DNA of 40,101 nucleotides from Flavobacteriales bacterium (GTDB lineage Bacteria > Bacteroidota > Bacteroidia > Palsa-965). Positions 2 through 39,259 of the stretch are shown in pieces; positions within the stretch are counted from its first letter, which is position 1, and each line of letters opens with the position of its first letter. The stretch lies in the NCBI GenBank assembly GCA_040377305.1, contig JBEIPA010000040.1, positions 1 through 40,101 on the forward strand, in the 5' to 3' direction. The translations under genes were made by a program, and so were the position numbers. Below the pieces are notes generated by a model. That model was not told the origin of the DNA and ran no database searches. It saw nothing but the letters and a program-made list of their open reading frames with translations.

Positions 2-316
2 TTAGCTGTGGTACCTTGTCAGACTGAGCGTATCCCGATAGCTATCGGGAGAAGGGTGACAAGGGAACGCGGATTTTCTTTTTCGTTGTTTGCTAGCGGC
101 TCGATGGATGACTACGGTAAACGACAAAATTTGGTAATTGGATTTTATGAGATAAGCCCTTTAGCTGTGGTACCTTGTCAGACTGAGCGTATCCCGATAG
201 CTATCGGGAGATGGGTGACAAGGGAACGCGGATTTTCTTTTTCGTTGGTGTTAGATGCTTTTATGGATGAGTTAAGTAAACGACGATATTCGGTAATTGG
301 ATTTAATGAAATAAAC
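2..316. repeat. Tandem repeat with a 159-bp period (two units visible, may extend upstream). Each unit carries a REP-like hairpin with an 18-bp perfect palindrome.
   Basis: TTAGCTGTGGTACCTTGTCAGACTGAGCG starts at 2 and 161. The first ~86 bp differ at one position and the remainder is more diverged. TCCCGATAGCTATCGGGA lies at 33-50 and 192-209, inside CCTTGTCA...TGACAAGG arms. Confidence 0.95.
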
Positions 317-472
317 TTGAAACTTGATCACTGCGGCAACGGTTCAACCTGAAGCAATGCTGATGCGGAATGGACTACGGCAAATAAAGTGAGACTGTTA
401 TTTATTCCATTGCTGATCATTGGTGATATAATTGCTAAGTTGCAGTTTGCTAAATAGATTTCGAAAGTAGAT

Positions 473-2930: not shown

Positions 2931-3109
2931 TAGGAGGTTTTGGCCCCACGGGGCAATTGGGGTGTGTTGCTTATTCTAAGCAACACACATTTTGCTCCTA
3001 ACGGAGCATTGCAGGGCTGTCGATTATGGCAAAGAATTTGTGTAAACGAAACACTCGCACAATAGGCGAAAATTTCCGTTATTGTATACATCATTTTTAT
3101 GCACTCACA

Positions 3110-37871: not shown

Positions 37872-39259
37872 ATGTCATATGATGTAGTAATTATCGGCAG
37901 CGGTCCTGGTGGATATGTAACCGCAATCCGAGCTTCACAACTCGGGTTGAAAACTGCCGTAATTGAAAAAGCTGAACTCGGTGGAATTTGTCTGAACTGG
38001 GGATGTATTCCAACCAAAGCATTGCTCAAGAGCGCACAAGTATTTGAATACCTGAAGCACGCGGGTGACTACGGAATTCAGGCGGGAGATGCGAAAGCAG
38101 ATTTCGGTGCAGTTGTAAAACGTAGCCGCGATGTTGCTGGTGGAATGAGCAAAGGCGTTCAATTCCTTATGAAGAAAAATAAGATCGATGTTATTGCAGG
38201 AACTGGAAAAGTGAAGCCGGGCAAGAAAGTGAAGTGACTGGTGCTGATGGAAAAACCCAAATGATTGAAGGGAAACACATCATCATTGCAACTGGTGCAC
38301 GTTCACGTGAGCTTCCTAATCTGAAGCAAGACGGAAAGAAAGTTATCGGATATCGTGAGGCAATGACTCTTCCTTCGCAGCCAAAGTCAATGGTTGTGGT
38401 TGGTTCAGGTGCAATCGGTGTTGAGTTCGCTTACTTCTATGCGTCGATGGGAACGAAAGTTACAATCGTGGAATTCCTTCCGAATGTTGTTCCGGTAGAA
38501 GACGAGGAAGTTTCAAAACAACTCGAACGTTCATTCAAGAAAATCGGAATTGACATCATGACCGAAGCTTCTGTTGAATCGGTTGATGCTTCTGGTACTG
38601 GATGCAAAGTGAAAATCAAATCAGCAAAAGGCGAATCAACAATTGAAGCGGATATTGTTCTGTCAGCTGTGGGAATCACGCCGAACATTGAAAATATCGG
38701 ACTTGAAGACGTTGGAATTGCAACCGACAAAGGAAGAATCCTCGTTGGAAAATATTACGAGACAAACATCCCGGGCTATTATGCCATTGGTGATGTTCTT
38801 CCAACACAAGCTCTCGCTCACGTTGCATCTGCAGAAGGAATTACCTGCGTAGAGAAAATCGCAGGCATGCATGTTGAAGCAATCGACTATAACAACATTC
38901 CGGGATGTACGTATTGCCAACCGGAAATTGCTTCTGTTGGTTACACAGAAAAGAAAGCAAAAGAAGCTGGCTTTGAAATCAAAGTCGGAAAGTTTCCATT
39001 CTCTGCATCGGGGAAAGCGAAAGCTGGAGGAAATTCAGACGGATTCATCAAACTTATTTTCGACGCAAAATATGGCGAACTACTCGGTGCGCACATGATT
39101 GGGGCAAACGTTACGGAGATGATTGCTGAAATTGTTGTAGCTCGTAAACTCGAAACAACAGGACACGAAATGATCAAGTCTGTTCACCCGCATCCAACAA
39201 TGAGTGAAGCAATCATGGAAGCTGCCGCAGCTGCTTATGGTGAAGTGATTCACTTGTAA
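37872..39259 (+). CDS. lpdA: Dihydrolipoyl dehydrogenase, split by a 1-bp frameshift near 38230
   Basis: [36 protein letters not shown]; the two ORFs join if one base is added at AAA GT- GAA GTG. Confidence 0.95.

Follow-up and report, generated by a model that had tools for sequence, protein, structure and literature searches.

The Nostocaceae reportedly carry several families of small dispersed repeats (SDR), 21-27 nt in length and lying inside other repeats, which Elhai et al. are said to have described in 2008 (Genome Res 18:1484); we know of no enzyme for them. Insertion sequences (IS) that target REPs were reportedly noted by Tobes and Pareja in 2006. According to PMC5861425, SDR5 may use HIP1 as its insertion site. 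REPs and REPINs are many-copy extragenic hairpins, and their movement in trans is ascribed to a nuclease whose gene is present once and has a cognate hairpin alongside (PMC3116915, PMC6006769). REPs inserted within small or long palindromes are described for three species by Di Nocera et al. 2013 (PMC3733652), and SegB of phage T4 is a free-standing GIY-YIG homing endonuclease in a tRNA gene cluster (PMC2330249).

We describe here an 18-bp perfect palindrome, P (TCCCGATAGCTATCGGGA), found near the beginning of a 40,101-nt stretch of Flavobacteriales DNA (contig JBEIPA010000040.1 of assembly GCA_040377305.1, positions 1 to 40,101), which is called the window throughout, together with a 14-bp palindrome, Q (TCCGCCGCGGCGGA), from the same genome (G000). 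We lean towards the interpretation that P is a dispersed palindromic repeat of the Bacteroidota and a non-autonomous mobile hairpin that depends for its movement on small GIY-YIG nucleases, supplied in trans from genes lodged at tRNA genes. Taken by itself, the statement that P is a mobile unit is likely to be correct; that a GIY-YIG nuclease is the mover is a more tentative proposal, drawn from adjacency, co-occurrence and a subfamily test.

Like the SDR of the Nostocaceae, P and Q are very short, belong to several families and are nested in other repeats, short tandem repeats included; the likeness is one of behaviour only. They differ from the SDR in phylum and, it seems, in sequence, in being perfect palindromes of 14-18 bp, in replacing 3 nt (RNY) of the target, and in their link to tRNA and GIY-YIG genes. 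P shares with the REP/RAYT REPtron the character of a many-copy extragenic palindrome (33 copies in G000), but it has half the usual length, sits within REPs, adjoins GIY-YIG rather than Y1 genes and, as does Q, lacks the GTAG or CGTC end tag given for REPs in PMC3733652. The REPs found in palindromes and the IS found in REPs resemble P in that one repeat is nested in the hairpin of another; there, however, an entire REP is inserted, or an IS that brings its transposase along, whereas here it is a bare palindrome of 14-18 bp replacing 3 nt. Compared with a MITE, which has terminal inverted repeats, a body of 70-300 bp and a target-site duplication, P is 18 bp in total and target bases are lost. 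T4 SegB and the Bacteroidota cassettes discussed below both place a GIY-YIG gene among tRNA genes as selfish DNA; the cassettes are distinguished by minimal proteins (about 85-95 amino acids), duplicated tRNA fragments and a genome-wide cognate mini-palindrome. We know of no dispersed palindrome of such a kind for the Seg genes. Neither the 18-mer nor its inner 16-mer occurred in the literature searched, and neither P nor any Bacteroidota cassette of GIY-YIG gene, tRNA and palindrome was found to be described there, subscription journals and supplements lying outside the scope of the search. Very small mobile repeats are already known; P would add one with a testable candidate enzyme.

The palindrome and its REP hosts in the window

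P occurs twice in the window, at 33-50 (no strand assigned; sequence reading, shuffle test and fold) and at 192-209 (likewise without strand; sequence reading and self-comparison), the latter being a tandem duplicate of the former, and matches with up to two mismatches appeared in none of 100 dinucleotide-preserving shuffles. As single-stranded DNA it forms a hairpin whose 7-bp stem closes a 4-nt loop (-5.9 kcal/mol). Each copy replaces GTC in a REP on the forward strand, at 16-65 (sequence reading and a census of the REP family) and at 175-224 (sequence reading). The two filled REPs read TTGTCAGACTGAGCGTA-TCCCGATAGCTATCGGGA-GA(A/T)GGGTGACAAGG, with a single A/T difference at position 212. A plain, that is empty, REP at 1116-1149 of the same strand (sequence reading, REP census and empty-paralogue search) has GTC at the position of P and reads TTGTCAGACTGAGCGTA-GTC-GAAGGGTGACAAGG. 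All three are exactly as an earlier, sequence-only reading of the window had given them. When the plain REP folds, this GTC pairs as one side of a short inner stem (GACT/AGTC) and does not lie in a loop. An inverted partner REP on the reverse strand at 1046-1080 pairs with 1111-1145 (35-nt inverted repeat, 86% complementary, -29.7 kcal/mol), the two forming a REPIN-like pair. No Rfam family was found within the window at the gathering threshold.

The filled REPs are carried by two units of a 159-bp tandem repeat (2-319, forward strand, from self-comparison of the window), in which 2-88 and 161-247 are 99% identical, and 104-155 and 263-314 are 83% identical. Since both lie inside this one duplication, they represent one filled REP that was copied, a single event and not two insertions. 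The start of the window is the start, and thus an end, of contig C38; the tandem array continues past this edge of the contig, and contig C42 terminates in the same 159-bp unit.

Two further observations concern reading frames of the window. An ORF at 8-352 (114 amino acids, no Pfam hit) runs across the tandem repeat and both copies of P and is probably spurious. At 37872-39256 a pyridine-nucleotide disulphide oxidoreductase lies in two adjoining ORFs, of which the first (121 amino acids) corresponds to profile positions 1-89 and the second (341 amino acids) to positions 92-291 plus the dimerisation domain; this split may be a frameshift or a sequencing error.

Copies of P in the genome

The genome of the window comprises 5.18 Mb in 60 contigs with 45% G+C. 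P is its most frequent perfect 18-bp palindrome, with 15 of the 47 occurrences; 25 sites fit TCCCGAT-N4-ATCGGGA, 33 match with at most one mismatch and 52 with at most three. Allowing up to two mismatches, the core of the REP is matched 105 times. GTC is replaced by P or a variant at five independent REP loci (C10, the C38/C42 tandem, C45, C49 and C58), a decayed copy of the same kind is present at C19:56864, and GAC, the other strand of the REP inner stem, is replaced at C19:56802, C19:151767 and C43:85875. These filled REPs fall in different REP subtypes.

That P is merely a REP subfamily variant with no independent existence is scarcely tenable. P does stand at the same position in several REP copies, and the 159-bp tandem repeat has amplified the filled REP of the window as a whole; against this, a repeated flank accompanies just 18 of the 61 P and Q sites of G000, most P copies lie outside REPs, and P is present in orders with different REPs as well as in tRNA fragments, terminators and tandem repeats. 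The sequence-only reading had named confinement to this REP context as the mark of a mere variant, and by that standard the outcome favours mobility. On inspection all 61 sites look extragenic, the 12 that fall inside long stop-to-stop frames lying either before the probable start codon or among the final residues.

Insertion sites and the junction

Well over 150 unrelated contexts of P were collected from many genomes. Their flanks are extremely diverse, and the sites range from short tandem repeats and unique intergenic DNA to dead tRNA fragments, REP interiors, terminators and P itself. Flanks were tested at 201 to 216 non-redundant P sites, with positions 90-150 nt away as controls. A perfect adjacent stem of at least 5 bp was found at 10% of the P sites and 2% of the controls, and the flanks folded to a dG of -5 or lower at 24 of 201 P sites (12%) compared with 18 of 804 controls (2%; Mann-Whitney p = 4e-10). 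Hairpin tips are enriched about 5-fold among P sites, yet they are a minority, and hairpin-loop targeting was dropped as a general rule in view of these two proportions. Position -1, immediately next to P, shows a deficit of T (6%; background 32%), and the flanks are otherwise variable.

An automated search for empty paralogues (identical 8-9 nt on both sides, 0-9 nt between) returned 31 sites with exact flanks. At 19 of them the palindrome corresponds to precisely 3 nt in the empty copy, and 16 of these 19 triplets are RNY; the reverse complement of an RNY triplet is again RNY, which suits a palindromic insert. The P at C10:93257 has five empty copies with GTC, and that at C6:35692 has four with GAC. 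The other 12 sites have 2 nt (one site), 4 nt (two), 5 nt (three), 6 nt (three), 7 nt (one) or 9 nt (two), and at four of these exceptions the flanks are themselves pieces of P. To the eye, L033:476 looks like a P in which a second P replaces ATC; the automated search shows 7 nt there and lends this reading no support. A phase test flagged ten P sites in tandem repeats, of which seven lack 3 nt, two gave 6 nt and one gave 5 nt. The seven belong to repeats with periods of 6, 7 and 8, for which a target duplication would need to be of 3, 4 and 5 bp; the change therefore fits a loss of 3 nt and not a duplication of the target.

The sequence-only reading had proposed that an ultra-short palindrome inserts into other hairpin repeats as a parasite of REPs, and had named many copies in unrelated contexts, empty sites and a consistent junction as what would support mobility. 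An inserted and copy-propagated unit agrees well with the many unrelated contexts, with the 33 copies in unrelated extragenic positions of G000, and with the 31 sites that have empty paralogues, 19 of which show the replacement of 3 nt, mostly RNY. The restriction to REPs, or to hairpins in general, proved too narrow, given that only 24 of 201 P sites have flanks that fold as hairpins.

Distribution among genomes

With at most one mismatch P was found in 23 of 41 relatives in 0 to 88 copies, a span also seen between species of a single genus; a reversed control pattern was found in 0 of 41. Of 301 genomes sampled evenly from the class to which the window belongs, 144, in 91 of 168 genera, contain TCCCGAT-N4-ATCGGGA, as compared with two for the control, and 64 have at least five copies and are hereafter called P-rich. 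A prokaryote-wide scan with one genome per species gave at least 127 P loci. Among the matches listed, 124 of 127 carry Bacteroidota names, from the orders Flavobacteriales, Chitinophagales, Sphingobacteriales, Cytophagales and Bacteroidales, and the remaining three are an "uncultured bacterium", a "metagenome" and a "Variovorax" MAG which may be mis-binned. P is also present in 52 stretches of IMG/VR viral contigs. Unpublished genomes were counted in both samples (G012 among the 41, G641 and G717 among the 301), and no single claim depends on them. All correlations and counts across genomes given below are to be read as coming from related genomes, which are not independent samples.

tRNA genes and small GIY-YIG nucleases

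An all-against-all comparison of the ORFs around 167 P sites gave a sole recurrent neighbour, small GIY-YIG proteins beside tRNA genes. Among the 127 listed P loci a GIY-YIG ORF is present in four, against about 0.12 expected (binomial 7.5e-6, the expectation being rough), and an intact tRNA gene in nine, against 0.98 expected at the tRNA density of G000 (7.8e-7). The GIY-YIG profile was built from four seeds, two of them from these same P loci; its hits in L053 and L094 are not seeds and were also recognised by eye. The four P-adjacent proteins among the listed loci resemble one another. The layout of P, tRNA and GIY-YIG gene was seen in other genomes at L037, L053, L094, L124, L241, L242 and L234; the window itself has no GIY-YIG gene, and hence not this layout.

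At the cassette loci P lies in a loop of a partial, duplicated tRNA copy, and the adjoining intact tRNA is untouched; P or Q was found in D-, T- or anticodon loops of partial tRNAs next to intact tRNAs and GIY-YIG genes. GTT is replaced in a D-loop at L053 and AGT at L087; L094 has ATAAT replaced in the anticodon loop of a 5' and of a 3' tRNA fragment alike, and whole P copies flank its cassette. GAC in the T-loop is replaced three times in G691, and an empty paralogue in G768 has AAC. Around one GIY-YIG gene of G833, GCT is exchanged for P in a tRNA-Val 5' fragment and GTT for Q in the 3' fragment, and a P variant lies inside a duplicated terminator loop of the same locus. In G782 an intact tRNA-Met is followed by three tandem units, each made up of a tRNA-Met 3' fragment with P in the T-loop, a terminator and a GIY-YIG gene. 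Six tandem units of 66 bp (L232, G820:C1:779500-782500, at 955-1363) stand directly upstream of an intact tRNA-Trp; in each, a leader accompanies a 5' fragment of tRNA-Trp whose D-loop contains P. The even spacing of this array is CRISPR-like; it was rejected as a CRISPR and is rather a tRNA-fragment minisatellite.

Across the 301 genomes of the class, the number of P copies correlates with the count of PF01541 hits (Spearman 0.48; partial 0.41 given Y1), although larger or more repeat-laden genomes may have more GIY-YIG genes, Y1 genes and P copies alike, and genome size was controlled in the 41-genome set only and not at class level. All 64 P-rich genomes have at least two PF01541 hits and therefore something beyond UvrC. 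Homologues of the P-adjacent subfamily (one protein as query, E <= 1e-15) are present in 36 of the 301 genomes, of which 35 have P, as against 109 of the 265 others (odds ratio 50). At E <= 1e-8 no match with this subfamily was found in 32 of the 64 P-rich genomes, G000 among them. The nuclease subfamily predicts P, and the reverse does not hold. At least 90% of P sites are far from any tRNA or GIY-YIG gene, and in G015, the nearest relative of G000, P copies far outnumber cassettes (88 vs 7). A short-BLAST comparison of P flanks with the tRNAs of G000 returned noisy matches of 11-12 nt.

Several loci of related structure were noted in passing. At L239 (G015:C160:8700-9900) and L240 (G015:C15:26700-27900) the REP family of the window brackets a small GIY-YIG gene in inverted orientation, an arrangement like a REPtron in which a GIY-YIG gene takes the place of the RAYT; no such gene was seen in G000. 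In G000:C49:161205-162804 a tRNA-Arg is split in its D-loop by a cassette with GC-rich inverted ends which contains a new tRNA-Arg and a GIY-YIG gene, and in G000:C21:1-1014 a tRNA 3' fragment with a 29-nt GC-rich hairpin in the T-loop lies near a GIY-YIG gene. L238 (G030:C2:45800-47500) is a pseudo-tRNA-Arg with a 20-bp perfect palindrome (CCTGCCTGCCGGCAGGCAGG) in the D-loop, where no base is lost, and a 40-nt nested hairpin in the T-loop; it adjoins a GIY-YIG gene, an intact tRNA-Arg and a P variant.

Such cassettes bear on the view of P as a footprint, namely the fused ends left after loss of a larger IS or of a nuclease cassette with ends TCCCGATAG and CTATCGGGA. A perfect palindrome without a loop is the expected product of the fusion of two 9-bp terminal inverted repeats, and the split tRNA-Arg of contig C49 supplies a cassette with inverted ends. 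A search of G000 for longer elements with a P half at either end was negative, however; the half-site is not abundant there alone, and solitary halves are scattered and unpaired. The copies that flank the L094 cassette are whole and not halves, the disproportion between palindromes and cassettes in G015 is large, and neither P nested in P nor the loss of three target bases is predicted by a footprint, which we regard as quite improbable.

The Y1 gene of the window

The sequence-only reading had suggested that the palindrome is possibly mobilised by an HUH/Y1 enzyme such as the neighbouring TnpA. This gene, at 2418-2927 on the forward strand, encodes an IS200-like HUH protein (Y1_Tnp, Pfam PF01797, E 4.8e-23) whose motifs DHVH, WQ and NYIRNQEEHH fit subclass 1.2 in the table of PMC6006769. 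That paper describes subclass 1.2 as low-copy, devoid of typical IS200 ends and centred on Cyanobacteria and Bacteroidetes, and its table gives no known REP partner. A 21-nt inverted repeat (2252-2272 and 2980-3000) brackets the gene, and ahead of it lie TACAAACGTT-like tandem repeats of 10 bp (2348-2399), in an upstream stretch that recurs in many copies in G000 and its relatives. A similar motif, AAACGTTTGTAAA, is found ahead of small GIY-YIG genes in G015 and G000, and motifs of this kind may be a shared promoter or operator.

Mobilisation of P on single-stranded hairpins by a transposase of the IS200/RAYT kind, for example this one, has some circumstances in its favour. The gene lies 2.2 kb from the filled REPs and is one of seven good Y1 genes in G000, and the distribution and the lack of a known REP partner given for its subclass would suit such a role. 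P copies correlate with Y1 matches in the 41 relatives (Spearman 0.65; partial 0.53 given genome size and GIY-YIG count) and in the 301 genomes of the class (0.40), and Y1 is present in 50 of the 64 P-rich genomes as opposed to 124 of the 237 others. The class-level partial correlation is only 0.30 once the GIY-YIG count is given, however, and 14 of the P-rich genomes, two of them with 38 and 34 copies, have no match with the Y1 query, while P is absent from six genomes with at least four Y1 genes. Neither P nor Q lies within 450 nt of any of the seven Y1 genes of G000, which are adjoined by other palindromes, and a Y1 ORF was present in none of 179 blindly collected P loci. The ends of IS200/IS605 elements use guide and cleavage-site flanks, for which P is too short. 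The proposed part of the neighbouring TnpA is thus left without support by the P loci and by the surroundings of the Y1 genes, and movement of P by such an enzyme is improbable; the small GIY-YIG genes are the better-supported partner of P.

A second palindrome

Q, the 14-bp palindrome, has 28 copies in G000 with at most one mismatch (C33:44443, C9:80106, C10:139482, C45:118405 and 24 more, all outside the window), located at hairpin tips, in tandem repeats and in REPs from which AGC has been replaced. It behaves like P in replacing 3 nt: for one of its sites 27 empty paralogues were found, with GTT, and for another 13, with AAA. The two palindromes have the ends TCC...GGA in common. Within the set of 41 genomes Q scarcely occurs outside the genus, and it reaches bursts of 86-94 copies in G001, G008 and G023; it is present in another family as well (G833). 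The bursts of Q and P fall in different genomes, G023 having 94 Q and 2 P, and G015 having 1 Q and 88 P. One and the same host repeat 3' of orthologous GIY-YIG genes contains P in G015 and a variant of Q in G000, at different offsets, which indicates that the locus was hit by separate events. G030 and G000 have further palindromes, GC-rich ones, in the same role.

Orthologous sites

No clean orthologous pair of filled and empty sites differing by P alone was found in the comparisons of G015 with G000, within Algoriphagus or within Flavobacterium; in all three the entire host unit, be it a hairpin, a REP or a MITE-like repeat, is gained or missing along with P. Between G015 and G000 (15 loci fetched, three aligned) P and the entire host hairpin or REP are missing together; in Algoriphagus the closest relative is without an entire repeat cluster of about 400 nt, P included; and in Flavobacterium G044, compared with G266 and G466, P lies within an insert of about 130 nt that is missing from G266. 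One orthologous P is common to two Flavobacterium genomes at 87% identity, so that some copies are old. An empty allele of the terminator site G000:C30:123746 was sought in metagenomes and not found. A read search turned up the probable source run and one metagenome sharing 17% of the words, and the reads of four runs over G000:C19:55500-71500 gave only short contigs, broken at P sites.

The conserved site in Flavobacterium is among the points in favour of regarding P as a selected functional hairpin, be it a site for a host protein, an RNA structure or a patch that breaks up a duplicated tRNA target or homology next to a nuclease cassette, which has spread by gene conversion. The same 18 bases recur across several orders and vary in the central 2 to 4, as would be the case for a constrained stem, and the palindromes of the cassettes lie in spare tRNA pieces and not in the working tRNA. 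We consider this explanation unlikely: the copy number swings between 0 and 88 among species of one genus, P sits in tandem repeats, in REP interiors and in P itself, the 167 loci share no recurrent neighbour besides GIY-YIG and tRNA genes, and an exact 18-mer at dozens of sites still requires a copying mechanism. A transcription-factor operator was rejected on the same absence of other recurrent neighbours and the same range of copies in one genus, and on the P sites inside REPs, tandem repeats and tRNA fragments. The SOS operator motifs of Bacteroidetes in PMC8565304, GGA-N5-TCC and CTAA-N5-TTAG, do not match P, and this candidate was likewise set aside.

Proposed mechanism and significance

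If P is a mobile hairpin served in trans by the tRNA-associated nucleases, the following course of events may be imagined. A small GIY-YIG nuclease acting as a symmetric dimer would bind or cut the palindrome and an exposed or structured target, remove the target triplet and join P in its place. The preferred target would be single-stranded or extruded structured DNA, such as hairpin arms and slipped tandem repeats. After loss of the nuclease, as has apparently happened in G000, copies of P would persist as relics and multiply only with their hosts. Since G000 is without a close homologue of the P-linked GIY-YIG subfamily, the copies in the window are probably relics, which at present increase solely by ordinary duplication, the 159-bp tandem repeat being an example.

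A bolder and frankly speculative extension would rank P, Q and related palindromes with the smallest mobile DNAs known, as bare hairpins of 14-20 bp which a GIY-YIG nuclease of about 90 residues puts in for an RNY triplet. Under the same extension the hairpins would be copied or cut and pasted with loss rather than duplication of the target, in parallel with the homing of the nuclease to tRNA genes, across the phylum and beyond.

How very short dispersed repeats such as REPs, SDRs and organellar mini-palindromes are copied is a long-standing question, mostly without a known enzyme. P supplies an exact 18-mer, hundreds of natural insertion sites, a sharp junction rule, sister families and a candidate enzyme of about 90 residues. 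If the link with the nuclease holds, it would provide a GIY-YIG counterpart to the REP/RAYT pair, and it would explain the nested hairpins that litter the intergenic and tRNA loci of Bacteroidota and break their assemblies, the window itself beginning at such a break.
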